DNA from: Propionibacteriaceae bacterium
Lineage (GTDB): Bacteria; Actinomycetota; Actinomycetes; Propionibacteriales; Propionibacteriaceae
Direction: 5' to 3'
Length of the DNA: 24,000 nt
NCBI GenBank assembly: GCA_030539405.1
Contig: JAUNSA010000015.1
Coordinates: forward strand, 395-24,394
Part shown: positions 940 through 15,123 of the stretch, piece by piece
Numbering within the stretch: the first letter of the stretch is position 1
Layout: every line of letters starts with the position of its first letter
Notes under the pieces: generated by a model
Database searches by the model: none
Told to the model about the DNA's origin: nothing
The model's input: the letters and a program-made list of their open reading frames with translations, nothing else
Program-made: the position numbers and the translations under genes

Positions 940-1113
940 TTCGTGGACGCCCAGCGCGCACTGGGCCTCGTCCGGTGACGGTGGACGGCCTGGCGTAACC
1001 GCCCGGCACCACCCCTAACGAACATCCGCCGACTGCCCGGTAGTGGTCGCGGCCCGGGGTGGGCGCCTCCCGGGGCCTCGACCAGTACGGAGACGGTGGG
1101 CCGACACCAAGGC

Positions 1114-1725
1114 TCAGCCCTGCGCGGTCTCCCGCTGCGGCGCCTGCGGGGCCTGGCGGTGCGGGTTCCACCCGGGGCCGGCGACCTTGTCGGCGGCTGC
1201 CCCCGAGATGACCACCATCACCGCGGTCATGACACAGCCGTAGGCGAAGATGCCCACGACCCAGGGCCAGCTCAGCACGGGGGCGCCGGCCTGCACGATG
1301 CCGGGGTTGTTGAAGATGAGCAGCACCATCAGCATCTGGAGGAAGCCGACCAACACCGCGGGCACCACGGCGAACGGGGTGCGGCCGAGCAGCAGCGGGT
1401 GCACGGCGAGGATCAGGAAGATCACGAGCGTGACCCCGACCCCCAGCACCATGGGCGTCGACGCCGGGTTCGCGCCGATCATCGGGCCGGCCACGAGGTT
1501 GAACAGGAAGCCCCACACCGTGCCGGCGAGGAAGCTGAGGAACAGCGCGACCAGCCCGCCCAGCGGCATGCGCAGGGCGAAGAACAGCGGGATCGGCAGG
1601 ATCGCGAAGGGCGTGTAGGGCGCCATCTGGGGGAAGGCCGCCTGCACGGGCAGCAGCAACAAGGTGATGATCACGGCGCCGAGGATCGCCTCGACCAGCG
1701 TGCCCTTCACGAGCTTGGGGGACAT
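1114..1725 (-). CDS. uncharacterised polytopic integral membrane protein (~203 aa, about 5-6 hydrophobic segments)
   Basis: ORF 1114..1797, trimmed to ATG 1725 (MSPKLVKGTLVEAILGAVIITLLLL..), which is preceded by AAGGAG 5 nt upstream. The protein is strongly hydrophobic throughout and I recognise no family motif. It is divergent from the TetR gene. Confidence 0.75.
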   Translation of the reverse strand: MSPKLVKGTLVEAILGAVIITLLLLPVQAAFPQMAPYTPFAILPIPLFFALRMPLGGLVALFLSFLAGTVWGFLFNLVAGPMIGANPASTPMVLGVGVTLVIFLILAVHPLLLGRTPFAVVPAVLVGFLQMLMVLLIFNNPGIVQAGAPVLSWPWVVGIFAYGCVMTAVMVVISGAAADKVAGPGWNPHRQAPQAPQRETAQG

Positions 1726-1751
1726 GGGTTCTCCTTGGGAGTCGTCATCAT

Positions 1752-1841
1752 TGACGGTAAGTAGCGTCACTGCACACGGTAGAAACTCACGCGACACTAT
1801 GTCAAGAGTCTGACCATGGTGAGGTTTCTCTGTTGTATGTT
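1752..1841. promoter_or_regulatory. divergent promoter/operator region between the membrane-protein gene and tetR
   Basis: Minus strand: TTGACA (1805-1800), 18 nt, then TACCGT (1781-1776). A 14/18 dyad TGACGGTAAGTAGCGTCA (1752-1769) lies just downstream of that -10. The motif cGACActaTGTCA (1792-1804) overlaps the -35. Plus strand: TATGTT (1836-1841) ends 6 nt before ATG 1848, which would allow a leaderless tetR transcript. Confidence 0.5.
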
Positions 1842-1847
1842 CGGGGC

Positions 1848-2468
1848 ATGGCCAGCCTGAGGGACGCGCAGAAGCGCATGACGCGGGAGCTGTTGCTCGA
1901 CAACGGCCTGGAGCTGTTCACCCAGAAGGGGTACAACGCGACCACGATCGAGGACATCGCGGGCGCAGCCGGCACCACCCGCACCACCTTCTACCTGCAC
2001 TTCGCGTCGAAGAGCGAGCTACTGGCCCAGTTGCTCGAGCGCATCGCAGGCCAGGTGACAGACGCCGACGAGCACAAGCTCGAGGACTGCGTCGCCAGCG
2101 GCGACATCACCAAGATCAGGGGCTGGCTGAACCGCAACTTCGACAACTGGGACACCCTGCGCCCCTACCTGCTGCCCGCCTACGAGGCAGCGCCCTCAGA
2201 CCCCGTGATCCACGCGTCCCTGATCACCTGGTTCGAGGACACCATCTCGGCCATGCACCGCGGCCTCGACCGGGCCGACCGCTACGCCGAGGACGACCGG
2301 CGCGCGCGCTGCGTCATGGCGTTCGGCCAGTTCGAGTACACCGCCCACCGCTACTTCAGCCTGGGCTGGCGGACGCCCCGGGACGCCGTCCTGCGCAACA
2401 TGACCGACTCGTGGGCGTACTTGCTCACCGACCGGGGGCTGGCAGGTCCCGCCGCGGCGGACGCGTGA
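1848..2468 (+). CDS. TetR/AcrR-family transcriptional regulator
   Basis: The N-terminal HTH region TRELLLDNGLELFTQKGYNATTIEDIAGAAGTTRTTFYLHFASKSELL is typical of TetR_N. Start taken as ATG 1848. The alternative is TTG 1833, with GAGG 8 nt upstream, as in the track. Confidence 0.88.
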   Translation: MASLRDAQKRMTRELLLDNGLELFTQKGYNATTIEDIAGAAGTTRTTFYLHFASKSELLAQLLERIAGQVTDADEHKLEDCVASGDITKIRGWLNRNFDNWDTLRPYLLPAYEAAPSDPVIHASLITWFEDTISAMHRGLDRADRYAEDDRRARCVMAFGQFEYTAHRYFSLGWRTPRDAVLRNMTDSWAYLLTDRGLAGPAAADA

Positions 2469-3618
2469 GCACGGGTAACACGGCCCCGACCAGGGCGATA
2501 CCACCCAGCACGCTGAACGCCACCACGTAACCCCCGACCCCACCGGCCAACCACGCCCCCAGCAGCGGCCCGACCACCCCGGCCAGGCTCCAGCCGACGA
2601 GCATCAGGCCGTAGATCGCGCCCGCGTGGGCGACCCCGAAGAAGGTCCCGGCCGTGGACGGCATCACCCCAAACGCGCCGCCGTAGCAGAGGTAGACCAG
2701 CGCAGCCAGGGCCAGGAAGGTGAGGCCCGAGGTGTGCGGCAGGGCGATCAGCGCGAGCCCCTCCAGCACCAGGATCGTGGCGAGCACCCGCAACCTCCCC
2801 ACCTTCTGCGCCAGCGACGCCCAGACCACCCGGCCCGCACCGTTGAACAGGGCGAGGACGCCCACCGCGGCAGCCGCACCCGCGGCGTCCAGACCACCGA
2901 CGTCGGCAGCAGCACCGGCCATCATCGAGATCAGGGCGATCCCGGCCAGCACCGCGACGGTCAGCGTGGCGGTGAGCAGGTACCACTGCGGGGTGCGCAA
3001 CGCCTGCGCCACGGTGAAGTCGGACGCCGCGGCCGTGCGGTCACCCTCCTGCCGCGGCGGGCTGACCAGGAGCGCGGCCCCGATGAGGCCCAGGACGAGG
3101 TAGGCCAGGCCGAGGGGTCGGAAGGCGAGGGCGGGGGCGTCCGGGTTCTGTGCGATGAAGAACTGCGCTGCGGGCGAGGTGAGGGTGGCACCAAATCCGA
3201 ACCCCCCGACCGCGAGCCCGGTGACGATCGCGGTGTGCCGCGGGAACCACTTCTGCAGCAGCGCCACCGGCACGATGTAGGCCATGCCCAGCCCGAACCC
3301 CCCGACCACGCCGTAACCGAGCACGAGCAGCCACAGCAGGTCGGGCGTGGTCGCCAACGAGGCGAGCAGCACACCGGCACCGTAGAGGGCGACGCCCACC
3401 AGGGCGACGAACCGCGGCGAGCGACGATCCTGCAGGCGTCCACCCACGAACGCCCCGATGAAGATCATGCCGATGGCCACCTCGAACGGGATCGCCGCCT
3501 CGACCGCGCTCAGCCCCGGCTGGAGGGCACGCCCGAACAGACTCCAGGCGTACACGCCGCCGATCACGACCTGCACGACCACCCCGCCCACCAGGGCAGC
3601 CCACCGCGCATGCGTCAT
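2425..3618 (-). CDS. MFS transporter, oxalate/formate antiporter (OFA)-like family
   Basis: 397 aa with about 12 hydrophobic segments. The N-terminal GGVYAWSLF motif is characteristic of OFA/YhjX-type MFS proteins. Last gene of the minus-strand operon. Its 3' end overlaps the tetR 3' end by 44 bp. Confidence 0.85.
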   Translation of the reverse strand: MTHARWAALVGGVVVQVVIGGVYAWSLFGRALQPGLSAVEAAIPFEVAIGMIFIGAFVGGRLQDRRSPRFVALVGVALYGAGVLLASLATTPDLLWLLVLGYGVVGGFGLGMAYIVPVALLQKWFPRHTAIVTGLAVGGFGFGATLTSPAAQFFIAQNPDAPALAFRPLGLAYLVLGLIGAALLVSPPRQEGDRTAAASDFTVAQALRTPQWYLLTATLTVAVLAGIALISMMAGAAADVGGLDAAGAAAAVGVLALFNGAGRVVWASLAQKVGRLRVLATILVLEGLALIALPHTSGLTFLALAALVYLCYGGAFGVMPSTAGTFFGVAHAGAIYGLMLVGWSLAGVVGPLLGAWLAGGVGGYVVAFSVLGGIALVGAVLPVLTRPPRRDLPAPGR

Positions 3619-3636
3619 GGGGTCATCTTGGCAGGG

Positions 3637-5355
3637 CTACCCCGTGGTGTACGGCAGGACGATCCGGCTGGGGTGCTCGGCGTCCCGGTAGATCGTGTGG
3701 GTGACGGGGCGACCGACGGGCAGGTGGAAGGAGTCCGGCGGCAGCAGTGCGTTGTGCTCGTCGGCCAGGGGCTCGTTGTTGGAGAGCTCCAGGACGAGCT
3801 TGTGTCCGGGCAGGAACGCGTTCGCGAACGGGTAGAGCCGGATGACGTACTCGTTCACCTCCCCCGGCGTCACCGGCACCGCACGGGTGTGCGGGTGCAC
3901 GGGGCTGCCCTCGGTCGTCCGTTCGAGGTCGAGCTCGCGGTGCGACGCCTTCAGGTAGCCGGTGGTGATGAGCTGCCGCTTGCCGTTGGGGGCGGCGTCC
4001 CACAGCCGGAGGATGAAGTTGGTGTCCTCGGCGTCGATCGCGGCGAAGATGTGCGCCGCACCGGTGCCCATCATCTCGACCTTCTCGGTGAACGGCGCGG
4101 TCTCCCAGCTCAGGATCTCGACCTTGTCGGTCACCGTCAGCGGCGCCTGGAAGAAGCCGTCCGGGGCGGCGTACTCGGGCCCCATCAGCTCGGGCTCGGC
4201 CGACAGCTTGCGACGCGGGCGCAGGTACAGCGGACGGTACTCGGTCGGCTTCGGCGGCCACTCCTCGGCGGTCACATACTCGCGCGAGCCCTCGACGAAC
4301 ACGGTCACCGCCGACTCCTCGTCGACGCCGTTGTCGATGCCCTTGAGATACTTGTCGTACCAGCGGAACATCTTGTCGTGCTCCTCGATGAACGGGCGGC
4401 TCTGCATCGGCGGGTACGGCCCGAGGTCGAGCTTCTTCGGGCCGGTCACGGCGTTGAAGACCTCGATGGTGCCGTCCAGGGTCCAGCCGCGGCCGTGGTC
4501 GAGCTGCAGCCACACCGGGATGTCGATGTTGCCGGCAAGCTCGTTGGGGTTCCGCTCGGTGTACCAGGGGCCGTCGAGCTCGTTGGTGATGATGTCGAAC
4601 CACGGCTCGTGGTTCTTCGGGTAGTGCAGGACGTGCACCATGTTCGGCCACGCGGCGATGTCGGGGTCGGCCAGCCGGGCCTCGACCCGAGCGCGCACCT
4701 CGTCGGCCGACAGCTCGGAGAGCATCCGCGACTTCACGCCGTCGGTGAACGCCCAGCCCGAGTCGCCGCCTCGTCCCTCGCGCGCGGCGCGCGGCATGAG
4801 CCACATGATGCCGCCGTGGTAGGTGGTCTCGTAGAAGTCGTAGTGCCCGCCCGAGACGAAGATCGCCTTGAGCGACGGCGGGCGCTCGGCCGCCGCGATC
4901 ACCTGCATCGAGCCGAAGTAGCTGATGCCGATCATGCCGACGTTGCCGTCGCACCACGGCTGCGCGGCGACCCACTCGATGAAGTCGTAGGCGTCCTCGC
5001 CCAGCGACACGCCCCCGGCGTTGTAGTTGCCGATGTGCTCACCGTCGGAGTGACCGGTGCCGCGCAGGTCGCCGATGACGTGCACGTAGTCCTCGGCGAC
5101 GACGCGGGCGATGTCGCCGGCCTCGATGCAGCCGTCCCACATCGGGGAGGGACGCCGCTGCGGCGGCATGGTCAGCGCCAGCGCCTGGAGCTCCTTGCCG
5201 TAGGGGCTGAGCGCCACCAACGCCGGGCGCGGCTTCTCGTCAGTGCCCTCGTAGGCGTCGGCGACCAGCTCCACGCCGTCGCGCATCGGCACGCGCAGGT
5301 CCTTACGGATACGGATCGTCTGCCCGCCCGCGTCCCAGGTCCGGATGTCAGCCAT
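3637..5355 (-). CDS. CocE/NonD-family (S15, X-Pro dipeptidyl-peptidase-like) serine hydrolase
   Basis: 572 aa. Contains DLRGTGHSDG and the nucleophile elbow GISYFGS (GxSYxG), and has the long C-terminal domain typical of the family. Confidence 0.88.
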   Translation of the reverse strand: MADIRTWDAGGQTIRIRKDLRVPMRDGVELVADAYEGTDEKPRPALVALSPYGKELQALALTMPPQRRPSPMWDGCIEAGDIARVVAEDYVHVIGDLRGTGHSDGEHIGNYNAGGVSLGEDAYDFIEWVAAQPWCDGNVGMIGISYFGSMQVIAAAERPPSLKAIFVSGGHYDFYETTYHGGIMWLMPRAAREGRGGDSGWAFTDGVKSRMLSELSADEVRARVEARLADPDIAAWPNMVHVLHYPKNHEPWFDIITNELDGPWYTERNPNELAGNIDIPVWLQLDHGRGWTLDGTIEVFNAVTGPKKLDLGPYPPMQSRPFIEEHDKMFRWYDKYLKGIDNGVDEESAVTVFVEGSREYVTAEEWPPKPTEYRPLYLRPRRKLSAEPELMGPEYAAPDGFFQAPLTVTDKVEILSWETAPFTEKVEMMGTGAAHIFAAIDAEDTNFILRLWDAAPNGKRQLITTGYLKASHRELDLERTTEGSPVHPHTRAVPVTPGEVNEYVIRLYPFANAFLPGHKLVLELSNNEPLADEHNALLPPDSFHLPVGRPVTHTIYRDAEHPSRIVLPYTTG

Positions 5356-6274
5356 CGTTGCTCCTTCTCAGGTGTCCGTGCAGGGTCGTGAAGAACGACC
5401 ACGGTTCGTGCGTGGGGTCGCCCGCGTAACCGAGTTCGGACGCCGCCGCCTCGAACGGCGAGTACGGCGAGGCCGTCTCCCGGACGCCGTCAGCCGCGGT
5501 CTGCTCCCACACGGCCGCGATGCGGTCGGCGACCGCGATGCTCTCGGCCAGGGCGCGAGCGGCGTCCTCCACGACGACGCCGGGGGACTCGCCGGTCGTC
5601 CAGCGGTAGGGGTGACCGAGGTAGAGCCGCTGTGGCCGCACCTCGTCGCGCAGGCGGACCAGGCTCGCCCGGTAGTCGACCGGGTCGTCGTAGCCGGGGA
5701 TGCCGGAGGCCGCCCCGTTCAGCATCACCGTGTCGCCGGTGAACAGGTCACCCTGGCCGACCACTTCGTAGGCGACCGACCCGGCGGTGTGACCGGGCAC
5801 GTGGTGCACCACGATCCGGACGCCGCCGCCCAGGTCGAGCTCTTCGCCGCCCTGCAGCAGCACAGTGGGCTCGACGCCCCCGGAGATGACGGTGTCGGCC
5901 TGCGCCTGCTGGTCTGCCTCCAGCGTGGGGGTCGGCGCGTACCGGGCACCGATCTCGAGGTTCTTGGCGATGATCCCCGCCGGGGAACGCAACAGGTCGG
6001 CGTCCGCGGTGTGGATGGCGACCTGGGCACGGCGTCCGGTCGCCTCCACCAGGGCGGCCGTCCCGCCGATGTGGTCGATGTGCCCGTGCGTGTGCAGGAT
6101 CCACCGGACGTCCTCGAGCCGGCGCCCGAGCGTGGCCAATGCCGGGGCCATGCCCTCGGCCGGCGAGCTCGCGATGCCGGTGTCGATGATCGCCGGCTCC
6201 GGCGCGTCGATGAAGTAGCTGTACAGCCCGAACCGACCCCACGGGGAGACGAGCGGATGGATCCCGACGGTCAC
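5348..6274 (-). CDS. MBL-fold metallo-hydrolase
   Basis: Carries the HTHGHIDHIGG motif (HxHxDH) and a later HHVPGHT motif. Track ORF 5348..6826 is trimmed to GTG 6274, which forms a GTGA overlap with the upstream MFS stop. The upstream extension overlaps the MFS gene in another frame. Confidence 0.85.
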   Translation of the reverse strand: MTVGIHPLVSPWGRFGLYSYFIDAPEPAIIDTGIASSPAEGMAPALATLGRRLEDVRWILHTHGHIDHIGGTAALVEATGRRAQVAIHTADADLLRSPAGIIAKNLEIGARYAPTPTLEADQQAQADTVISGGVEPTVLLQGGEELDLGGGVRIVVHHVPGHTAGSVAYEVVGQGDLFTGDTVMLNGAASGIPGYDDPVDYRASLVRLRDEVRPQRLYLGHPYRWTTGESPGVVVEDAARALAESIAVADRIAAVWEQTAADGVRETASPYSPFEAAASELGYAGDPTHEPWSFFTTLHGHLRRSNDG

Positions 6275-7611
6275 GACGCCGCCCGCTCCGGCGCAGGCGC
6301 CTGCGTGTTGGCGGTCAGGTTGCGGTTCAACGGCACGAACCAGAAGGCCAGCGCGGCGATCAGGCCGGGCAGGCCGAACCACACGAAGTTCATCGCGACG
6401 GGCAGGTTCATGGTGAGCAGGATGCCACCGAAGATCGGGCCGAAGATGGCCCCGATCCGGCCGACGGCCGAGGCGAGCCCGATCGCCGTGGAACGCATGA
6501 ACGGCGGGTAGTACTGCGCGACGAACGCATACGAGATGTTCTGCGCGCCGTTGGCGGTGGCGCCCGTGACGGCGACTAGGGCCAGCAGCAGGACCAGTCC
6601 GCTGCCGAATCCGAGCAGCGCCAGCGAGACCGCCGCGCCGATGTACATCGGCACCAGCACCTTCTTCACGCCCAGCTTGTCGGCGAGGCGTCCGAGGAAG
6701 AGGGTGCCGATGATCGCGCCGATGTTCTGGAAGATCGGGAAGTTGAGGCTCGAACCCAGGTCGTAGCCCGACCTCACCATCAGTTGCGGCAGCCACACGG
6801 TGAGGCCGTTCAGCATGAGCAGGCACATGAAGAACGCCACCCAGATCATGAGGGTGCCCAGGGCGCGGCCCTCGGTGAACAGTGCGGCGATGGGCGCCTT
6901 CTGCTGCTTGGCCTCGGGGGCGGGGAAGGTGACCTCGGACGCCGTGACCGGGCGTCCGGCCAGATCACTCAGGACGCCCAGGGCAGCATCCTGACCGCGC
7001 CGGTGCGCCAGCACCGACGGCGAGTCGGGGAAGTAGCGGCCCATGAAGGGCACGAACAGCAACGGGATCGCGGCGACCCAGTAGGCGGCCTGCCAGCCCA
7101 GCGTCGGAATCATCGCCATGGCCACCAGCGCCGCGAGGATGCCGCCGACGTGGAAGAAGCTCATCACGATCGCGACGTAGCTGTTCGCCCGCCCCTTGGG
7201 TGCGTAGTCGGTCAGCGTCGCGATGACCGTGGGCAGGATGCCGCCGATCCCGAGACCGGCGAGGAACCGGAAGATCGAGAACACCGTCGGATTGGGCGCG
7301 AACCCACACAGTGCGGTGGCCGCACTGAACAACACCACGGCGGTGAGCAGGACCCGCTTGCGGCCGAACCGGTCGGCGAGCATGCCGAAGCCGACAGCTC
7401 CCAGCATCATGCCGAAGAAGCCGTAGCTGCCGATGGCTCCGGCCTCGACGGGGGTGATGCCCCACTGCTCGATGAGCACCGGGAGGACCGACCCGTAGAT
7501 CACGAGGTCGTACATGTCGAAGGTGATGATGAAGCAGGTCCAGAACAGCATCCAGAAGTGGAAGCGGTTGAACCTGGCCTCCTCGATGAATTCGCGCACG
7601 GTCGTGGTCAT
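6271..7611 (-). CDS. MFS transporter, aromatic-acid:H+ symporter (AAHS)-like
   Basis: 446 aa with 12 predicted TM segments. The N-terminus (FHFWMLFWTCFIITFDMYDLVIYGSVLP) and the GMLADRFGRKRVL loop resemble PcaK/BenK/MhpT-type transporters. Confidence 0.85.
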   Translation of the reverse strand: MTTTVREFIEEARFNRFHFWMLFWTCFIITFDMYDLVIYGSVLPVLIEQWGITPVEAGAIGSYGFFGMMLGAVGFGMLADRFGRKRVLLTAVVLFSAATALCGFAPNPTVFSIFRFLAGLGIGGILPTVIATLTDYAPKGRANSYVAIVMSFFHVGGILAALVAMAMIPTLGWQAAYWVAAIPLLFVPFMGRYFPDSPSVLAHRRGQDAALGVLSDLAGRPVTASEVTFPAPEAKQQKAPIAALFTEGRALGTLMIWVAFFMCLLMLNGLTVWLPQLMVRSGYDLGSSLNFPIFQNIGAIIGTLFLGRLADKLGVKKVLVPMYIGAAVSLALLGFGSGLVLLLALVAVTGATANGAQNISYAFVAQYYPPFMRSTAIGLASAVGRIGAIFGPIFGGILLTMNLPVAMNFVWFGLPGLIAALAFWFVPLNRNLTANTQAPAPERAAS

Positions 7612-7635
7612 GGGTCGGTCTCCAGGGTCGGGGTG

Positions 7636-8517
7636 TCAGCGGTTGAGGAACGCGGCGGTCTGGTCGAACACCCGGGCGAAGTCGCCGATCCAACCGAAGT
7701 TGGCCACGAAGCCGTGGTTGGCGCCTTCGTAGCGGGTGTGGGTGACCGGGACGCCGGCCTCGGCCAGGCGTCGGGCATACAGCTCGCCCTCGTCGCGGAG
7801 CGGGTCGTGCTCGGCGGTGACGACCAGCGCCGGGGGCAGCCCGGTCAGGTCGGCGCGCTTGATCGGGGAGACCCGTGGGTCGTCCGGGTCGGCACCCGAG
7901 TCGAGGTAGAACGCGTTGAACGGCGCCAGCCCTGCGGTCTCCAGGCCGTACCCGGTCGCCTCGGTGCGCAACGACTCGTAACGCGTGGTGTCGAAGTCGA
8001 GGTCGAGGCTCGGGTAGTACAGGACCTGATGGGTCACGGCGTCCAACCCCTCATCGGCCGCACGGGCCGCGAGCGCGGCAACGAACGTACCCCCGGACGA
8101 GTCGCCGGCCAGGGCGACCGGGCCGCCCTGCCCGGCGGCCCACCTGACCACCGTCCAGCAGTCGTCGAGTCCGGCCGGGAAGGTGTGCTCGGGCGCGAGC
8201 CGGTAGTCCACCGACACGACGGTCCAGTCGGTGGCGTTGGCCAGGGCGCGTGCCACGTGGTCGTGGGTGTCGAGGCTGCCGAGGAAGAACGCTCCGCCGT
8301 GGAAGTAGACGAGCGTGCCGTCACTGACGGCGTCCGAGCGGTAGACCCGCACGGGAACGCCGTCGACGTCGGCGTCCTCGACGGACGCCACGGGGATGCG
8401 GTCGGCGGGCGCGGGGACCTGCGCGGCCTCTCCGGCCCGCATGGCGACCGGGTCGAGCGGGCCCGGCGGCGGTGCCGGCAGGGAGGCCAGCACCTCCGCG
8501 ATCTGTGGGTGGATCAC
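7636..8517 (-). CDS. alpha/beta hydrolase fold-3 esterase/lipase (hormone-sensitive-lipase family)
   Basis: Has an HGGAF oxyanion motif, a GDSSGG nucleophile elbow, and DPLRDEG plus a C-terminal HGF for the triad. Track ORF 7636..9366 is trimmed to GTG 8517, which forms a GTGA overlap with the upstream stop. Confidence 0.85.
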   Translation of the reverse strand: MIHPQIAEVLASLPAPPPGPLDPVAMRAGEAAQVPAPADRIPVASVEDADVDGVPVRVYRSDAVSDGTLVYFHGGAFFLGSLDTHDHVARALANATDWTVVSVDYRLAPEHTFPAGLDDCWTVVRWAAGQGGPVALAGDSSGGTFVAALAARAADEGLDAVTHQVLYYPSLDLDFDTTRYESLRTEATGYGLETAGLAPFNAFYLDSGADPDDPRVSPIKRADLTGLPPALVVTAEHDPLRDEGELYARRLAEAGVPVTHTRYEGANHGFVANFGWIGDFARVFDQTAAFLNR

Positions 8518-9644
8518 TCGTCGACACCGACCTTCTCGCCGGGGCGCTTCTGGCCGGGGAAGACGTCGTTGACCTCGTCCTCGCTCCAGCCCTGGCGCGA
8601 GATGCGCTGCAGCTCGTCGGTGATCGGCTTGCGCTCGGCGGCGTAGGCGGCCACGGCCTCCTTGACGGTGTCGTTGTCCTTCAGCGCCTGGGCGAGCGCC
8701 CCGGCATCGAGGATCGCCGAGTTGGCGCCCTGGCCCTGGTGGTGGCACATGGCGTGGGCGGCGTCGCCGAGGAGCACGACGGAGTCGGAGTGCCAGACGT
8801 CGACCGGGTCGATGTCGTAGACGGCGCGGATGTTGACCTTGTCCATGTCCAGGTCCTGCACGAGCTTCACGATGCGCTCGTCGAAGCCCTCGACGGTGGC
8901 GAGCAGGTCCTCCTTGGTGCGGACCGGGTTGCGCGTCGGGTCGGTGTTGAGCGCGGTGACGTCGAAGCTCATCTGGTTGCGGTGGCGCAGCGGCAGGACG
9001 TACACCTTGGTGCCGCGGCCCAGGTACATGCGCAGGTTGTCGTCGGTGACCAGGCCGTGCGCGGCGTCGGCGTCCACGACCACACGGTAGGCGTGCTCGC
9101 CGGCGAAGACGGGCTGCTGGTCGCTGAACAACTGCGCCCGGACGGTGGAACGGATGCCATCGGCACCCACGACCAGGTCGGCCTCGACGGTCTCGCCGTC
9201 GGCGAAGGTCAGCGTGGCGGTGCCGCCGTTGTCGACGATCTTCTCCAGCTTCTTGTTGGTCTTCACCATGCCCTCGGGCAGCGAGCCGACCAGCGCCTGG
9301 ATGAAGTCGTTGCGGTGGACGAGGTGGGTGTGGGTCTTGGTCTCGTAGTCGTCCATGCCCGGCCACTGGTCCTTGGCGATGGTGTGGCCCTCAGCGGTGA
9401 GGATCTCGAAGTAGTTGGACGCCGAGGTGACATCGGCGATCGCGTCGAAGATGCCCCACTGGCGGAACTGGTCCATCGACGAGGGGCGCAGGCCGATGCC
9501 GGCGCCGACCTCCCTGATCTCCTTGGCCTGCTCGTAGACGGTGACCTGGGCACCCAGGTTGGACAGGGCCTTGGCCGCGGAGGCGCCGCCGTAGCCGCCG
9601 CCGACGATGGCGACGCGCAGGTTCTTCAGCTGGTCAGTGTTCAT
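8514..9644 (-). CDS. FAD-dependent aromatic-ring monooxygenase (class A, salicylate/3-hydroxybenzoate hydroxylase-like)
   Basis: Contains VAIVGGGYGGASAA (GxGxxG), VGADGIRSTVR (DG motif) and LLGDAAHAMCHHQGQGAN (GD motif). Start is ATG 9644, preceded by AAGGAAGAG. The longer track ORF overlaps the PTE gene. Confidence 0.88.
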   Translation of the reverse strand: MNTDQLKNLRVAIVGGGYGGASAAKALSNLGAQVTVYEQAKEIREVGAGIGLRPSSMDQFRQWGIFDAIADVTSASNYFEILTAEGHTIAKDQWPGMDDYETKTHTHLVHRNDFIQALVGSLPEGMVKTNKKLEKIVDNGGTATLTFADGETVEADLVVGADGIRSTVRAQLFSDQQPVFAGEHAYRVVVDADAAHGLVTDDNLRMYLGRGTKVYVLPLRHRNQMSFDVTALNTDPTRNPVRTKEDLLATVEGFDERIVKLVQDLDMDKVNIRAVYDIDPVDVWHSDSVVLLGDAAHAMCHHQGQGANSAILDAGALAQALKDNDTVKEAVAAYAAERKPITDELQRISRQGWSEDEVNDVFPGQKRPGEKVGVDE

Positions 9645-9681
9645 GGTGTTGTCTCTTCCTTGAGGCGTTGGTTGCAGGAGG

Positions 9682-10638
9682 TCAGGTGATCGGCTGGACG
9701 GTGTAGAACTCGGCGGGGCGGGTGACGAAGAGGCGGGTGATCTCGGCATCGTCGATGCCGGCCTCGCGCAGGTCGGGGATGAGCTCCTCGAACAGGTAGT
9801 TGACGGTGTGGCCCTTGACGCCGGGCCAGCCCAGGGGTGAGCAGTTGGCGTCGACGCCGGCCAGCACCTGGTCGGGGTACTCGGCGTGGAACTGCCGGAA
9901 GTGGGCGAGCCGCTCGGCGCGCTTGCGACCCCAGAACGGCGGGTCGGGAAGCTCCAGGTCGTAGCCGAACGTGTCGAACCCGACGATGCCGCCTTGGGCG
10001 GCGATCCACGCGTGGTTGGTCTTGTCGTGGTTCACCCCGTCGTCGGCGTGGCCGAAGATCACGCGGTCCAGGGGCATCCTCTCGTCGTGGAAGATCTCCA
10101 CGGCCGGCTCGGCGTCGATAGCCAGGTGGGTCACGATCGGGACGCCGGTGGCGCGGGCTGCGCGCCCGGCCGCGCGGTAGATGCGCTTGTCGAGCTCGGT
10201 CATCCTGCCCCCGCGGCTGACGCCGACCTTGATCACGCCGGCCTTGGCGCCGGTGGTGCCGATGCCCTCGGTGATCTCGTGGACGAAGACGTCGGCGAGG
10301 TACTCCACCGACGCGGTGGCGAAGTGCTTCAGGGCGGTGTCGCCACCGACGAAGCCGGTGCACGCGATGATGTGCACGCCGGTCTTGGCCGACAGCACTT
10401 GGTAGTAGTCGACGTCGCGACCGTTGCAGATGCCGGTCATGTCGACGAACGTGCGACCGCCGTACGCGTGGAACTGGCGCAGTTGCGCCATCGTCTCGTC
10501 GACGCGGGCCTCGAACGGCTTCCACCACTTGGTGTCCAGCTCGCTGCCGGGCATGCCGTAGCCGACGTGCTCGTGGATGGCGACGTAGCCGAGCTCCTCG
10601 GGCGCGACGGGGCCCAGCACGGTGTTGACGTGTGCCAT
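9682..10638 (-). CDS. phosphotriesterase (PTE) family hydrolase, apparently intact binuclear metal site (PTE-like lactonase/PHP type)
   Basis: 318 aa. Metal ligands seen: IHEHV (HxH), GVIKVG (candidate carbamylated Lys), VTHLA, FGHAD and GVDAN. A GAAGGAGG SD lies inside the 3' end of the upstream gene, 8 nt before the ATG. Confidence 0.88.
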   Translation of the reverse strand: MAHVNTVLGPVAPEELGYVAIHEHVGYGMPGSELDTKWWKPFEARVDETMAQLRQFHAYGGRTFVDMTGICNGRDVDYYQVLSAKTGVHIIACTGFVGGDTALKHFATASVEYLADVFVHEITEGIGTTGAKAGVIKVGVSRGGRMTELDKRIYRAAGRAARATGVPIVTHLAIDAEPAVEIFHDERMPLDRVIFGHADDGVNHDKTNHAWIAAQGGIVGFDTFGYDLELPDPPFWGRKRAERLAHFRQFHAEYPDQVLAGVDANCSPLGWPGVKGHTVNYLFEELIPDLREAGIDDAEITRLFVTRPAEFYTVQPIT

Positions 10639-10641
10639 GTC

Positions 10642-11637
10642 TCAGGCCTCCTTCTGGATGGTCAGCCAGGTGGCCGGGTTGGTGGTCGTCAGGGCGGTGG
10701 TGTCGGCGTCCGACAAGCCGCGGGCGGCCAACAGCGGGACGAACGACGTGAGCACGTGCTCGAACGCGGTGCCGGGGCGGGGCAGCCCCTTGGCGACGCC
10801 GATGGCGCCGCTGGCCACCAAGACGCGGTCGCGGTGACCCGCCTGCACGAGCTCGACGACCAGGTCGGCCCGTTCGTCGTCGGAGAGGAGGTCGTCGGAC
10901 GCGGTCCCCACCTGGGTGAGCCCCACCAGGGCGCCCTTCTCGGCGACGGCGACGGCCGCACCCGCGGCGTCCTTGCTGTCGAGGCCGACCACGAGCACGC
11001 GGGCCGGGTCGACCTCCTCGGCGAGGACGAGGTCGAGCTCGGCCACCGCGTCGGCGCCATAGCGGAACGCCATGGGCGCGCCGGTGGCGGCAGCCGTCCG
11101 GGCGGCACCGCGCAGCAGCGACTCGTCGGTGCCGGTGAGCCCACCGGTCGTGCCGGCGGTGACCACGAGGCCCGCGGCCGCGCGGCGCTCGATGCGGGGG
11201 ACGACCATGCCTTGGCTCACCTCGGCGGTGAACAGCTCGGCGAACCGGTCGGCCGGCCACGGCGTCGGCGGGTTGGTCTGGGGAGTCTTGAAGTAGCCAC
11301 CCAGGTTCTCTTCGGGGCCCATGCCGGTCGAGGCGACGATGTGGACGCCGGTGGCCTTCGACACGGCCTCGAGCAACGGCAGGTTGCGCCCGTGGAACAT
11401 GCCCGAGGCGTCCACCACCGTGCCGCCGCCGGCGGCCTTGAAGGCGTTCAGTTGGGCGACGAGTTCTGTCACGACCTCGGCGCGGTCGATCGTGATGTCA
11501 GGCGCGTGCTCGGCACCGGGAACCACGCTGAGCAGGGCCTCGTGCGCCGCCACCACGCCGAGCTCGTCGGCCGGGACCGGGCCGAGCACGGTGTTGACGG
11601 TGCGCCCGGAGTCACCGGGGGACGTCGTTGTCGTCAT
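10642..11637 (-). CDS. PTE-family paralog with degenerate metal-binding site (probable non-catalytic or neofunctionalised)
   Basis: Aligns by eye with the neighbouring PTE (VNTVLGPV, TGVHIVASTG). However HEH is replaced by HEA, the Lys by Thr (VVTAG), a His by Arg (AFRYG), a His by Leu (VGLDS) and the Asp by Gly (ASGAI). Start trimmed to ATG 11637, with GAAAGG 5 nt upstream. Confidence 0.8.
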   Translation of the reverse strand: MTTTTSPGDSGRTVNTVLGPVPADELGVVAAHEALLSVVPGAEHAPDITIDRAEVVTELVAQLNAFKAAGGGTVVDASGMFHGRNLPLLEAVSKATGVHIVASTGMGPEENLGGYFKTPQTNPPTPWPADRFAELFTAEVSQGMVVPRIERRAAAGLVVTAGTTGGLTGTDESLLRGAARTAAATGAPMAFRYGADAVAELDLVLAEEVDPARVLVVGLDSKDAAGAAVAVAEKGALVGLTQVGTASDDLLSDDERADLVVELVQAGHRDRVLVASGAIGVAKGLPRPGTAFEHVLTSFVPLLAARGLSDADTTALTTTNPATWLTIQKEA

Positions 11638-11658
11638 GGGAACCTTTCGTGGCTTCAC

Positions 11659-11706
11659 TGACACTGTGTCATTCAAATATACGTAGCGTCACCGACGCGG
11701 TGTCAA
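11659..11706 (-). promoter_or_regulatory. promoter/operator of the hydrolase operon
   Basis: Minus strand: a perfect TTGACA (11706-11701) and an A/T-rich TATATT (11681-11676, 19-nt spacing). A perfect 13-bp palindrome TGACACTGTGTCA (11659-11671) lies just downstream of the -10 and 22 nt upstream of the ATG. A related cGACgcggTGTCA (11693-11705) overlaps the -35. Confidence 0.5.
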
Positions 11707-11848
11707 GGGGTTGTCGCGAGTCGCCTGAGCTTGGGGATGGGAATGGAGGCTGCGCCGGCCAGGGCCTGGCCCGACTCGAGGGTGCAGGCGGCGCTGACCG
11801 CGCTGGCCCGCCACGTGAAGTCGTTCCTGCCTGAGCCCACCAGGAGGC

Positions 11849-12418
11849 TCAGCCGTAGGTGTCGCGCGGTCCGCGCCCCTTCACGGTGCGCGGGCCGTGC
11901 CGCCAACTCGGGGCCTCGGGGCCGAGGATGCGCACGGCCTTGACGCTGCCGTCCCCCAGCGAGGCGTTCATCTTCGCCACGATCTGGGGGGCCATCAGCC
12001 GCAGTTGTGCGGCCCAGTTCGTCGAGGTCGTGCGCACCACCACGACCCGATCCACGTACGCCTCCGGCGTGGAGTGCTGCGCCACGGCGTCCCCGACGAG
12101 GTCGGGCCAGCGACCCAGCAGCAGGTGCACGCTCACCTGCCGGCCCCAGCCGCGGTTCTCGATGACGCTCTCCAGCGCCTCGCCCAGGGCGGTCGGCTCG
12201 CCGCGTTCCTGGCCGGACGCCGGACGCCGCGGCCCGGTCTTCTTCCGCGGGGACGGCTTCCGCACCGGCGGCGTGGCCCGCCCTGCGGCGGCCGCGATCT
12301 GGCGCGCCAGGTCCAGCCCGGTGGGGTCGAACGGGATCTCCTCGGACGCCCCTTGGGCTGCCGGCTCAACAGGGTCCGGGGCGTCGGCGTCCGGGGTGGT
12401 CGGGTCACTCATCGTCAT
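11849..12418 (-). CDS. dciA: DUF721/DciA-like protein
   Basis: 189 aa. The conserved C-terminal half (WPDLVGDAVAQHSTPEAYVDRVVVVRTTSTNWAAQLRLMAPQIVAKMN) and the position immediately after recF match actinobacterial DUF721 (Rv0004-type). Overlaps the recF stop. Confidence 0.85.
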   Translation of the reverse strand: MTMSDPTTPDADAPDPVEPAAQGASEEIPFDPTGLDLARQIAAAAGRATPPVRKPSPRKKTGPRRPASGQERGEPTALGEALESVIENRGWGRQVSVHLLLGRWPDLVGDAVAQHSTPEAYVDRVVVVRTTSTNWAAQLRLMAPQIVAKMNASLGDGSVKAVRILGPEAPSWRHGPRTVKGRGPRDTYG

Positions 12419-13580
12419 CCAGCCTGACCGTGCCGGCGTCGATGATCCAGCGGCGTCCGGCCAGGGCGTCCGGGACGTCGGAGGCGACGGCCGCGGTGAT
12501 GATCACCTGCTCGGCGCCGGCGATCCGCTCCGCCAGGCGGGCGCGGCGCACCTCGTCCAGCTCGGCGAACACGTCATCGAGGATCAACACCGGTTCGACC
12601 CCGTCGGCGCGCAACAGGGCGTAGGCACCCAGGCGCAGCGACAGGGCGAACGACCACGACTCGCCGTGGCTGGCGTACCCCTTCGCCGGGAGGTGCCCCA
12701 ACGAGAGCACGAGGTCGTCGCGGTGGGGGCCGACCAGCGTCACGCCGCGGGCCATCTCCTCGGCGCGACGCTCCCCCATCCGGACGCGCAGGCGCTCGGC
12801 GAGCTCCTCGGGGGTGGCGTCCAGGAGTGCCTCGGGGACCGCCTCGCCCGGACCAGGGTCGAGACCCAGCGAGCTGGACCGGTAGGCGACCTTTGCGTCG
12901 TTGTTGCTCGGCGCGATCGCCAGGTAGGCCTCGGCGACATGGGGTCCCATCTCGTCCAGGGTCTGCAGCCGGGCGGCGACGATCTCCCCGCCGAGGCGGG
13001 CCAGTTGCTCGTCCCACACCTCCAAGGTCGCGGCAGCGTCGCCCGAGGTGGGCCCACGGCGTCCGGACAGTGACTTCAGCAGCATCGACCGCTGCCGCAG
13101 CACGCGGTCGTAGTCGGCGCGGACGCCCGCCAACCGCGGCCAGCGCTGGGTGAGCAGGTCGTCGATGAAGCGGCGCCGGTCCGAGGGGTCGCCCTTGACC
13201 AGGGCGAGGTCCTCGGGCGAGAACAGCACCACCCTGAGCGCGCCCAGGATGTCGCGCACCCGGCGCAGCGGCCCCCGGTTGAGGGCGGCCTTGTTGGGCT
13301 TGCCGGAGTGGAGTTCGATCTCCAGGGCGAGCGCGCGGGTGTCCTCGATGCCAGCCTGGACACGGGCCCGGACGATCGCCCGGGGGGCGCCGAACCGGAT
13401 CAGCGGGGCGTCCGAGGCCACCCGGTGCGACCCGAGGGTGGCCAGGTACTCGATCGCCTCGACGAGGTTGGTCTTGCCCTGCCCGTTGCGCCCGGTCAGC
13501 GTGGTGACGCCGGGTTCGAGCGTGAGCTCGGCGAACTCCCAGGAGCGGAAGTCCGCGAGGCTGAGCTGGGTGACGAACAA
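12405..13580 (-). CDS. recF: DNA replication/repair protein RecF
   Basis: Contains LSLADFRSWEFAELTLEPGVTTLTGRNGQGKTNLVEAI (Walker A) and C-terminal LILDDVFAELD (Walker B). TTG start lies 1 nt after the dnaN stop. Confidence 0.93.
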   Translation of the reverse strand: MFVTQLSLADFRSWEFAELTLEPGVTTLTGRNGQGKTNLVEAIEYLATLGSHRVASDAPLIRFGAPRAIVRARVQAGIEDTRALALEIELHSGKPNKAALNRGPLRRVRDILGALRVVLFSPEDLALVKGDPSDRRRFIDDLLTQRWPRLAGVRADYDRVLRQRSMLLKSLSGRRGPTSGDAAATLEVWDEQLARLGGEIVAARLQTLDEMGPHVAEAYLAIAPSNNDAKVAYRSSSLGLDPGPGEAVPEALLDATPEELAERLRVRMGERRAEEMARGVTLVGPHRDDLVLSLGHLPAKGYASHGESWSFALSLRLGAYALLRADGVEPVLILDDVFAELDEVRRARLAERIAGAEQVIITAAVASDVPDALAGRRWIIDAGTVRLDDDE

Positions 13581-13581
13581 C

Positions 13582-14742
13582 CTACTGCGGCAGGCGCATC
13601 AGCATGATGACGTGCTTGTAGTCGGTCGACGGCTCACCGTCGAACTCGACCAGCGGCGTCAGCAGGCAGGGCTTGCCGGGCGCGGTGAAGGCGAAGTTCA
13701 CGTACGGGGTGTCCAGCGCGTTCAGGGCGTCCAGCAGGTAGTGCGGGTTGAAGCCGGCCGCGGTCATGGCCAGGCCGTTGCCCGTCTCGTCGACCACGGT
13801 CGCCTCGACGGCCTCGACCGCCTGGGCCTGGTCGCCGGTGGCGGCCTCGAGCGTGATGTGGTCCTCGGCGATGACCATGCGCAGGCTCGTGTTGCGCTCG
13901 GCGACCAGCGCGACGCGCTTGACCGCGGCCACGATCTCGGCCGTGTTCGCGCGCACGGTCAGGCTCGGCTGGACGTTCATCAGGTGGCGCACCTTGGGGA
14001 ACTCGCCGTCCAGCAGGCGCGTGGTGATCTGGCGGACGCCGTTGGTCCCCTCCCCCTCGAAGCCGATGAGGCCGTCGCCGCCCTCGGACGACGACAGCGA
14101 CAGCGACACCTTCTCGCCGGCGGTCATGGACTTCGACGACTCGGCGAGCACCTTCGCCGGCACCAGCGCGGCCGCCTCGGTGTTGCGCGACGTGGGCGAC
14201 CAAGGCAGCTCCTTGAGCGCCATGCGGTAGCGGTCGGTGGCCAGCAGCGACACCGTGTCGCCCTCGATCTCGACGCGGACGCCGGTGAACACCGGCAGCA
14301 GCTCGTCACGCCCGGCGGCGACGACCACCTGCGAGACGGCCTGGGCGAACGTCTCGGGGGTCAGCGTGCCGGTGGAGACGGGCATCTCCGGCAGGTCGGG
14401 GTACTCGGCCAGCGGCAGGAGCTGGAGGGTGAAGCGCGCGGAGCCGCAGGTGATCTCCATGCGCGAGGAGTCGGCGTCCAGGTCGACCGGCTTGGCCGGC
14501 AGGCTGCGGGCGATGTCGGCCAGCAGGCGTCCGGACACCAAAGCCACGCCCTCGTCCTGGACGTCGGCGGCCACCGTCACCTTGGCCGAGGTCTCGTAGT
14601 CGAAGCTGGACAACACGACCTGGTCACCGGACGCCTCGAGGCGAAGCCCGGCCAGGATCGGCACGCTCGGCCGGTTCGGCAGGCTGCGCGCCACCCACTG
14701 GACGGCGTCGGCCAACACGTCACGCTCGACACGAATCTTCAC
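13582..14742 (-). CDS. dnaN: DNA polymerase III beta sliding clamp
   Basis: VKIRVERDVLADAVQWVARSLPNRPSVPILAGLRLEA.. is a typical DnaN N-terminus. Start trimmed to GTG 14742, with GGGAG 5 nt upstream. The track start at 14781 adds 13 atypical residues. Confidence 0.92.
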   Translation of the reverse strand: MKIRVERDVLADAVQWVARSLPNRPSVPILAGLRLEASGDQVVLSSFDYETSAKVTVAADVQDEGVALVSGRLLADIARSLPAKPVDLDADSSRMEITCGSARFTLQLLPLAEYPDLPEMPVSTGTLTPETFAQAVSQVVVAAGRDELLPVFTGVRVEIEGDTVSLLATDRYRMALKELPWSPTSRNTEAAALVPAKVLAESSKSMTAGEKVSLSLSSSEGGDGLIGFEGEGTNGVRQITTRLLDGEFPKVRHLMNVQPSLTVRANTAEIVAAVKRVALVAERNTSLRMVIAEDHITLEAATGDQAQAVEAVEATVVDETGNGLAMTAAGFNPHYLLDALNALDTPYVNFAFTAPGKPCLLTPLVEFDGEPSTDYKHVIMLMRLPQ

Positions 14743-15123
14743 TGATGCTCCCAGGTCGATGAACGGCGCCCGGAGGTGCACGGGCGGCTGCGTGGCCGAT
14801 CCTATCGTGCGATGTGGGCGTCGTCGGCACCGACGGCGTTACCCACAATCGCGCAGGGTCCTGAGGTTGAAGAGAAGGAGATGTCTAACTTCTCTTCTTC
14901 GTCTTCACACCTGTGGATCTCGTGGACAGTCGGCGTCTGCCCAAGCCGCATCGGTGTTTCGGCCCAGCACATCCTGTGGGAAAACCGGAACTACACGGGG
15001 AGGATTTGTGGAGCCGTTTCCGGGTCGATCCGGCTGTCCACAGCACGGCCTGGTTGTCCACAGGGTTGTTGGGGAGAAATCCCCACGTTCGCGACTCGTC
15101 GGATGCCGTCGCGGCACGCCGCA
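14743..15123. other. probable oriC: DnaA-box cluster plus AT-rich element in the dnaA-dnaN spacer
   Basis: Matches to the 9-mer TTGTCCACA: 15054-15062 (9/9), 15034-15042 (8/9), TTACCCACA at 14839-14847, and reverse-orientation boxes at 14912-14920, 14921-14929, 14975-14983 and 15007-15015 (6-7/9). An AT-rich stretch at 14862-14910 contains a perfect 9-bp inverted repeat, GAAGAGAAG (14869-14877) and CTTCTCTTC (14889-14897). Confidence 0.8.

Follow-up and report, generated by a model that had tools for sequence, protein, structure and literature searches.

Phosphotriesterases (PTEs) and phosphotriesterase-like lactonases (PLLs) are studied for enzyme evolution, organophosphate decontamination and quorum quenching, and are almost always treated as single-gene homo-oligomers. 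The characterized members of the family are single-gene enzymes, most of them homodimers. Subunits that have given up catalysis are known from other enzymes: PyrC' of Pseudomonas aspartate transcarbamoylase is an inactive dihydroorotase homologue that has lost its metal ligands and serves as an obligatory non-catalytic subunit, while the HadAB/HadBC dehydratases, the ChsE4-ChsE5 acyl-CoA dehydrogenase and ChsH1-ChsH2 are actinobacterial obligate heteromers of adjacent paralogs in which one partner is without catalytic residues. AibH1H2, the heterodimeric 2-aminoisobutyrate hydroxylase of Rhodococcus, is composed of two amidohydrolase-fold paralogs, one with a catalytic dimetal site and the other mainly structural (PMC12141560). 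Here we describe two adjacent PTE-family genes, A and B, in a 24,000-nucleotide stretch of DNA from a Propionibacteriaceae bacterium (GenBank assembly GCA_030539405.1, contig JAUNSA010000015.1, positions 395 to 24,394 of the forward strand; hereafter the window). The product of B retains the complete set of binuclear-metal ligands, that of A does not, and the two genes are inherited side by side in Actinomycetota and Bacillota.

Loss of the metal ligands in gene A

The pair occupies the start of an operon on the minus strand of the window:

10642..11637, minus strand: gene A, first gene of the operon, encoding a 331-residue PTE-family paralog without the binuclear-metal ligand set (PF02126 match, ligand columns)
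9682..10638, minus strand: gene B, encoding a canonical PTE-family hydrolase of 318 residues (PF02126 match, full ligand set)

The open reading frame (ORF) of A starts at the ATG at 11637. Both proteins match the family profile PF02126 over its full length and well above its gathering cut-off of 22.4 bits: A with E=4e-33 and 115.6 bits over profile positions 3-298 of 298, and B with E=2e-47 and 162.5 bits over about positions 2-298. They share 31% identity over 325 columns (E=1e-30), and the segments VNTVLGPV, GG-T-VD and TGVHI-A-TG align between them, in agreement with an earlier note on this DNA that had called the two genes paralogs. Alignment of B to solved PTEs gives E about 1e-33, and its orthologues are 70-77% identical to it. 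The columns of the six metal ligands were taken from alignments to solved PTE structures together with family alignments:

First His: H22 in B, H32 in A (kept)
Second His: H24 in B, A34 in A
Lys: K137 in B, V159 or T160 in A, depending on the alignment
Third His: H171 in B, R192 in A
Fourth His: H197 in B, G218 or L219 in A, depending on the alignment
Asp: D263 in B, G277 in A

The binuclear ligand set of the family (HxH, a bridging carboxylated Lys or Glu, His, His and Asp) is therefore complete in B and missing from A, in which no alignment register restores a ligand. The earlier note had counted five of the six ligands as lost, and that count stands; its substitutions of Lys by Thr and of His by Leu represent one of two equally plausible registers. 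A mere shift of otherwise conserved ligands, which it had named as a refutation, is seen in none of these alignments. Judged by its sequence, A is a member of PF02126 but not a canonical metalloenzyme. No NCBIfam model is specific to either protein, and neither reaches any NCBIfam equivalog cut-off, the best scores of B being 112 bits for OPH (cut-off 500), 105 for PRK09875 (486) and 57 for phospho-furanose lactonase (630). The activity of a characterized member is thus not assignable to A or B; by its family and ligand set, B most likely acts as a lactonase or esterase.

Homologues of A were drawn from a search of 5.8 billion proteins, of whose 1917 matches the best 120 were kept. Their sources are Arthrobacter, Leucobacter, Nonomuraea, Streptomyces, Saccharopolyspora, Blastococcus and numerous metagenomes, their identity to A is 58-88%, and every one is annotated simply as 'phosphotriesterase'. 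Within this set the first His is kept in 119 of 120 sequences, the second column is Ala in 117 and the third His column Arg in 112, while the Lys column holds Ala, Thr or Val and never Lys, the fourth His column Gly or Asp, and the Asp column Asn or Gly. At least 95% conservation is found at 124 of the 331 positions of A. Over 31 orthologue pairs the median ratio of nonsynonymous to synonymous substitution rates (dN/dS) is 0.33 for A and 0.26 for B. A is under purifying selection and is not a decaying copy. It combines homology to enzymes, loss of the catalytic residues and purifying selection, which together define a pseudoenzyme, its catalytic inactivity being predicted from sequence.

Joint inheritance of A and B

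The context of the two genes was compared in 90 loci chosen through A, 80 of them metagenomic. In every one of the 76 loci that extend at least 300 nucleotides (nt) past the stop codon of A, B is the next gene on the same strand; reciprocally, A lies directly upstream of B in 10/10 genomes chosen through B. Among 401 evenly sampled Actinomycetota genomes, orthologues of A and of B (E below 1e-40) are confined to the same three, and the 20 other PTE genes in the sample are all canonical and all single. The pair occurs in Actinomycetota and also in Bacillota, where five genomes (Neobacillus, Sporosarcina, Psychrobacillus, Planococcus) hold an A orthologue of ~50% identity followed by a B orthologue of ~56% after a gap of 61-102 nt. 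All related loci that were examined repeat this arrangement, which puts the pairing far beyond chance. The genome survey that the earlier note had suggested thus shows A and B to occur together and side by side, whichever of them is used to choose the locus, in about 90 loci of two phyla and in two deep lineages treated below, and the functional coupling that it had supposed is stronger and more general than it could see.

The pair heads a longer cassette. The order A, B, flavin adenine dinucleotide (FAD) monooxygenase, esterase, metallo-beta-lactamase (MBL)-fold hydrolase and CocE/NonD hydrolase is found in Arthrobacter, Nonomuraea, Saccharopolyspora, Rhodococcus rhodochrous and Kocuria, with genes for a TetR regulator and a major facilitator superfamily (MFS) transporter nearby. 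Elsewhere the cassette is rearranged and the A-B pair persists: in Kocuria the MBL gene is inverted and the pair intact, and in Bacillota a thiolase-like/DUF35 gene pair takes the place of the monooxygenase and esterase genes.

The junction of the two genes can be read directly in the window:

10636..10653, minus strand: A/B junction, with a Shine-Dalgarno (SD) sequence AAGGAGG (10653-10647) in the last codons of A, 2 nt, the stop codon TGA (10644-10642), GAC, and the ATG of B (10638-10636)

The AAGGAGG motif sits 8 nt ahead of the ATG of B. The two genes share a reading frame, as they do in 16 other loci, and read-through of the TGA would be open and yield an A-G-D-B fusion. The 3-nt gap with its embedded SD sequence, from which the earlier note had argued for close coupling, is therefore real; the tight translational coupling is nevertheless lineage-specific. 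Elsewhere the spacing lies between -13 and 102 nt (median near 47 nt), and most genomes have ~50 nt with a separate SD sequence for B. Two distant lineages do show tight spacing, with a 2-nt gap and a 4-nt overlap.

A HMMER search covering 1.84 billion cluster representatives gave 2186 matches and placed A within a larger group. The nearest relatives of A outside its own family (32-47% identity) are all without the ligand set, and their replacements at the six columns vary (QQCQGN, SSTKQD, VASRND, AKLCSG and others). A maximum-likelihood tree groups A with ligand-less proteins only, in a clade of 15 members (SH-aLRT 99), and places B apart from them beside canonical sequences, so that the two are not recent duplicates of each other. 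The genomic surroundings of two remote ligand-less members, with 35% and 53% identity to A, were looked up. Each lies directly upstream of a canonical HHKHHD gene, one with the 2-nt gap and the other with the 4-nt overlap given above, and each pair sits inside another hydrolase-rich catabolic cluster. These partners are 47% and 66% identical to B, so the A and B lineages diverge in parallel. For 60 A-B pairs (1770 locus pairs), identity between A proteins correlates with identity between the B proteins of the same loci (r=0.91), and A is the faster-diverging partner in 98.6% of comparisons. Adjacency kept through rearrangements, parallel divergence and the faster change of A are as expected for a non-catalytic subunit of a heteromer.

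To the extent that the clade as a whole is conserved, it is conserved in its structure. When 15 diverse ligand-less members are set against 15 canonical relatives, nearly every position that the ligand-less clade conserves is a structural one also found in canonical PTEs (Gly, Pro, a GR motif, D76, T104-G105 and E139), and the six ligand columns vary freely. The clade shares no alternative catalytic constellation, which speaks against a new enzyme and in favour of a partner with a structural, binding or regulatory role. With the active-site columns free to vary, the role of pseudoenzyme or partner that the earlier note had envisaged for A fits better than a new catalytic role.

Further ligand-deficient groups of the PTE family were seen outside the A clade, some of them close to the B lineage (P0258, P0265, P0270, P0273, P0276, P0278, P0279, P0291, P0295, P0296, P0301, P0307, P0320 and P0385). 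Several Actinomycetota also contain open frames of ~760 residues with a PTE-like domain that is 35-38% identical to A over ~265 residues (G268:C98:7916-8701, G255:C219:6501-7280, G076:C112:23809-24600 and G229:C55:1658-2437); the one checked, in G268, has the canonical ligand set.

A proposed heteromer and its alternatives

We propose that B is a canonical binuclear-metal hydrolase of the phosphotriesterase/phosphotriesterase-like-lactonase family and that A is an ancient paralog that lost its metal site and that purifying selection has maintained in the role of a non-catalytic partner. Most probably an A-B dimer would replace the usual homodimer, with A contributing stability, substrate binding or an active-site lid through an invariant proline-rich loop. 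The pair would open a catabolic operon under TetR control that also encodes transporters, an FAD monooxygenase of decarboxylating type and three more hydrolases with different folds; its probable role is the breakdown of an aromatic natural product that contains an ester or a lactone. That A and B are two parts of one conserved functional module we consider very probable; for their physical association in a heteromer we would claim a modest preference. AibH1H2 offers, by analogy, a precedent for such an association in the same superfamily, and further precedents are PyrC' and paralog heteromers such as HadAB and ChsE4-ChsE5.

Structural models were built with AlphaFold2 (monomer weights) on read-through A-B fusions, from an alignment of 17 paired in-frame rows with 35 single A and 30 single B sequences. 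In the model of the window's own fusion both halves show the alternating strands and helices of a (beta/alpha)8 barrel like that of solved PTEs. Foldseek returned target-normalized TM-scores of 0.81-0.87 to PTE chains for the model of the fusion as a whole. One segment of A stands out:

11254..11286, minus strand: A-specific insertion TPQTNPPTPWP (residues 118-128 of A), invariant or nearly so in the A family and found neither in B nor in canonical PTEs

Residues T118, P119, Q120, P123, P124, P126 and W127 are invariant in 68 A-family sequences, and P123 is retained in 13 of the 15 members of the ligand-less clade. The insertion is also the sole internal segment of A with a predicted local distance difference test (pLDDT) score below 50 in both models. 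Invariance combined with low model confidence is a pattern that would suit a segment ordering only upon binding, and TPQTNPPTPWP is a candidate interface or lid loop.

Several observations weigh against the proposed heteromer. The fusion modelled from the window (2-residue linker) has a mean pLDDT of 86.7 and a predicted TM-score (pTM) of only 0.63, and the pair from a metagenome with a natural linker of 22 residues has a pLDDT of 85.4 and a pTM of only 0.53, values at which the relative placement of the two halves is not confidently predicted. Among the best 150 of the 2186 HMMER matches there is no natural A-B fusion protein; the sole long protein among them (958 residues) has a single C-terminal PTE domain. 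Tight translational coupling of the two genes is not conserved among loci. Arg or Lys occupies the former third-His column in 10/15 members of the ligand-less clade, which could hint at residual ligand binding by A itself. Finally, the one other cassette-bearing genome of the same genus (G024) holds A without its first 117 codons beside an intact B.

In G024, homology to A begins abruptly at residue 118, exactly at the TPQTNPPT motif (L118, G024:C68 1-2914). Upstream of the remnant, the minus strand carries a second FAD-monooxygenase-like gene and another, unrelated ORF; the rest of the assembly does not contain the missing third of A. B is 94% identical to that of the window; the remnant of A is 81% identical, is free of stop codons and has a dN/dS of 0.24. 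The remainder of the cassette is intact, except that no MFS gene separates the esterase gene from the MBL gene. The truncation may be a recent lesion or a mis-assembly, the genome being in 400 contigs.

The most durable alternative is that A acts alone in another step of the same pathway, as an enzyme without metal or as a ligand-binding protein, co-inherited with B without forming a complex. The unconfident placement of the model halves and the missing natural fusion fit this reading, the monooxygenase, esterase, MBL and CocE genes are also strongly syntenic with no complexes expected of them, and H32, R192 and D220 are highly conserved within the A family. Metal-independent members of the amidohydrolase superfamily exist, LigI among them. 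No clade-specific polar residue is conserved at the catalytic face of the barrel, however, so that a shared catalytic mechanism is unlikely; moreover, the A-B adjacency outlives rearrangements that separate or replace other cassette genes, and in three deep lineages the A-like and B-like proteins have diverged together as a unit. We therefore regard independent action of A as unlikely, if well worth keeping in view.

An improbable alternative is that A is a transient helper of B, either a maturation or metal-loading factor or a substrate-sensing regulator, and not a stoichiometric subunit. The same co-occurrence evidence would apply to such a helper; the variable gap and the separate SD sequence for B in most genomes do not enforce 1:1 production, and G024 keeps B intact beside a truncated A. 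Set against this, A keeps a complete barrel with high model confidence, as structural partner subunits usually do, and we know of no precedent for a paralogous TIM-barrel protein as a metallochaperone. That A is a decaying, functionless duplicate of B, as the loss of five of six ligands might suggest, has next to no likelihood and was rejected on the 124 of 331 highly conserved positions and the dN/dS of 0.33; moreover, some 90 loci in two phyla keep the frame open, and A belongs to an old ligand-less clade and is not the sister of B.

The proposed A-B heteromer may extend to the entire ligand-less clade. Its members would then be obligate non-catalytic subunits in at least Actinomycetota and Bacillota, each pairing with a co-evolving canonical PTE as a heterodimeric hydrolase, and the proline-rich loop TPQTNPPTPWP would complete or gate the single active site. 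We hold this broader reading to be a nearly even prospect, leaning slightly to the doubtful side; if true, it would represent a quaternary architecture not described for the phosphotriesterase/PLL family.

The catabolic cassette and its relation to known systems

The high-GC window surrounds a chromosomal origin, and the operon lies in it as an accessory element on the minus strand between dciA and gyrB. Besides A and B, its features are:

11849-14781, minus strand: dnaN, recF and DUF721/dciA
11654..11676, just upstream of the start of A: inverted repeat with the core TGACAC-N-GTGTCA and 11-nt arms
8514..9644, minus strand: group-A FAD monooxygenase, third gene of the cassette (PF01494, E=1e-32)
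7636..~8538 (start approximate), minus strand: Abhydrolase_3 esterase of the hormone-sensitive-lipase type (PF07859, E=1e-67)
6271..7611, minus strand: MFS transporter of the aromatic acid/H+ symporter type (PF07690; TIGR00895 at 322 bits, under its cut-off)
~5348..6268 (start approximate), minus strand: MBL-fold hydrolase (weak matches to MBL-fold chains)
3637..5355, minus strand: CocE/NonD-family hydrolase (Peptidase_S15 and PepX_C), final conserved gene of the cassette
2425-3618, minus strand: second MFS transporter, member of the operon
1833..2468, plus strand: TetR-family regulator (ORF; TetR homologues adjoin the cassette in many loci)
Start at 751: gyrB

The nearest solved relatives of the monooxygenase are tropone 2-monooxygenase, 6-hydroxynicotinate 3-monooxygenase and salicylate hydroxylase. 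The top NCBIfam match of the esterase is LipP1, under its cut-off. Orthologues of the MBL gene in related loci carry PF00753; those of the CocE/NonD gene, whose best solved relative is cocaine esterase (E=3e-33), are 76-88% identical across related loci. The MFS gene at 6271-7611 is not at the corresponding position in most related loci and was thus inserted in the lineage of the window. Neither the nearest solved or curated relatives of the other genes nor the literature led to a characterized cluster matching the cassette, and the hints at a substrate are generic only: a hydroxylase of decarboxylating type, esterases and an aromatic-acid symporter.

In the window and in most related loci the cassette comes with a TetR gene, and the inverted repeat at 11654-11676 is probably the operator of this regulator. 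The repeat overlaps an alternative TTG start of A at 11676. A consensus scan of 9500-11900 found no promoter-like or terminator-like sites, and so none between A and B.

The pair is present in only 2 of 25 genomes of the window's own genus, and the cassette is accordingly accessory; as a whole (window 1105-11854) it forms an insertion between dciA (DUF721) and gyrB, near the origin. In Kocuria (L014) it adjoins TniQ/TniB/transposase and resolvase genes, which suggests mobility. In Psychrobacillus (L003 8071-9699), genes for a Thiolase_C_1 thiolase-like protein and a DUF35/ChsH2-type OB-fold protein come after B; an FAD monooxygenase and a regulator lie upstream, the regulator there being IclR and not TetR. 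In Arthrobacter and Rhodococcus rhodochrous (L010 3441-5982; L013 3754-6271), a triplet of P450, ferredoxin and ferredoxin-reductase genes adjoins the cassette and may be part of the same pathway.

Six conserved genes make up the catabolic cassette that the pair marks, which is common in soil yet uncharacterized. A widespread clade of paralogs that lack the metal site and always accompany a canonical partner would mean that many database entries under the name 'phosphotriesterase' are not enzymes of that kind; produced alone, the canonical partners may be poorly soluble, weakly active or of the wrong specificity. The pair is also a clean bacterial system for tracing the origin of a pseudoenzyme subunit in a TIM-barrel metalloenzyme.

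Full-text searches, with most subscription journals outside their scope, found no paper on a PTE-family pseudoenzyme, a PTE heteromer or the cassette; the statement of the earlier note that no such pair was described for the family is in keeping with this searchable literature. With the PTE/PLL family (PF02126; Brevundimonas diminuta PTE, OpdA, SsoPox, Geobacillus GKL, E. coli PHP), A and B share the profile and the modelled barrel, and B has the HxH-K-H-H-D set; the difference is that those enzymes are encoded by single genes, whereas here a ligand-less paralog is always encoded beside the canonical one. AibH1H2 belongs to another family of the superfamily and catalyzes oxygenase and not hydrolase chemistry, and AibH1 still binds metal, whereas A is without ligands. 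PyrC' differs from A in that its partner, PyrB, is an unrelated enzyme and not a catalytically intact paralog. HadAB/HadBC, ChsE4-ChsE5 and ChsH1-ChsH2 have other folds and act in other pathways, and their complexes are proven, while that of A and B is proposed. A pair of active and inactive paralogs is thus a known kind of arrangement, and it is new for the PTE family.

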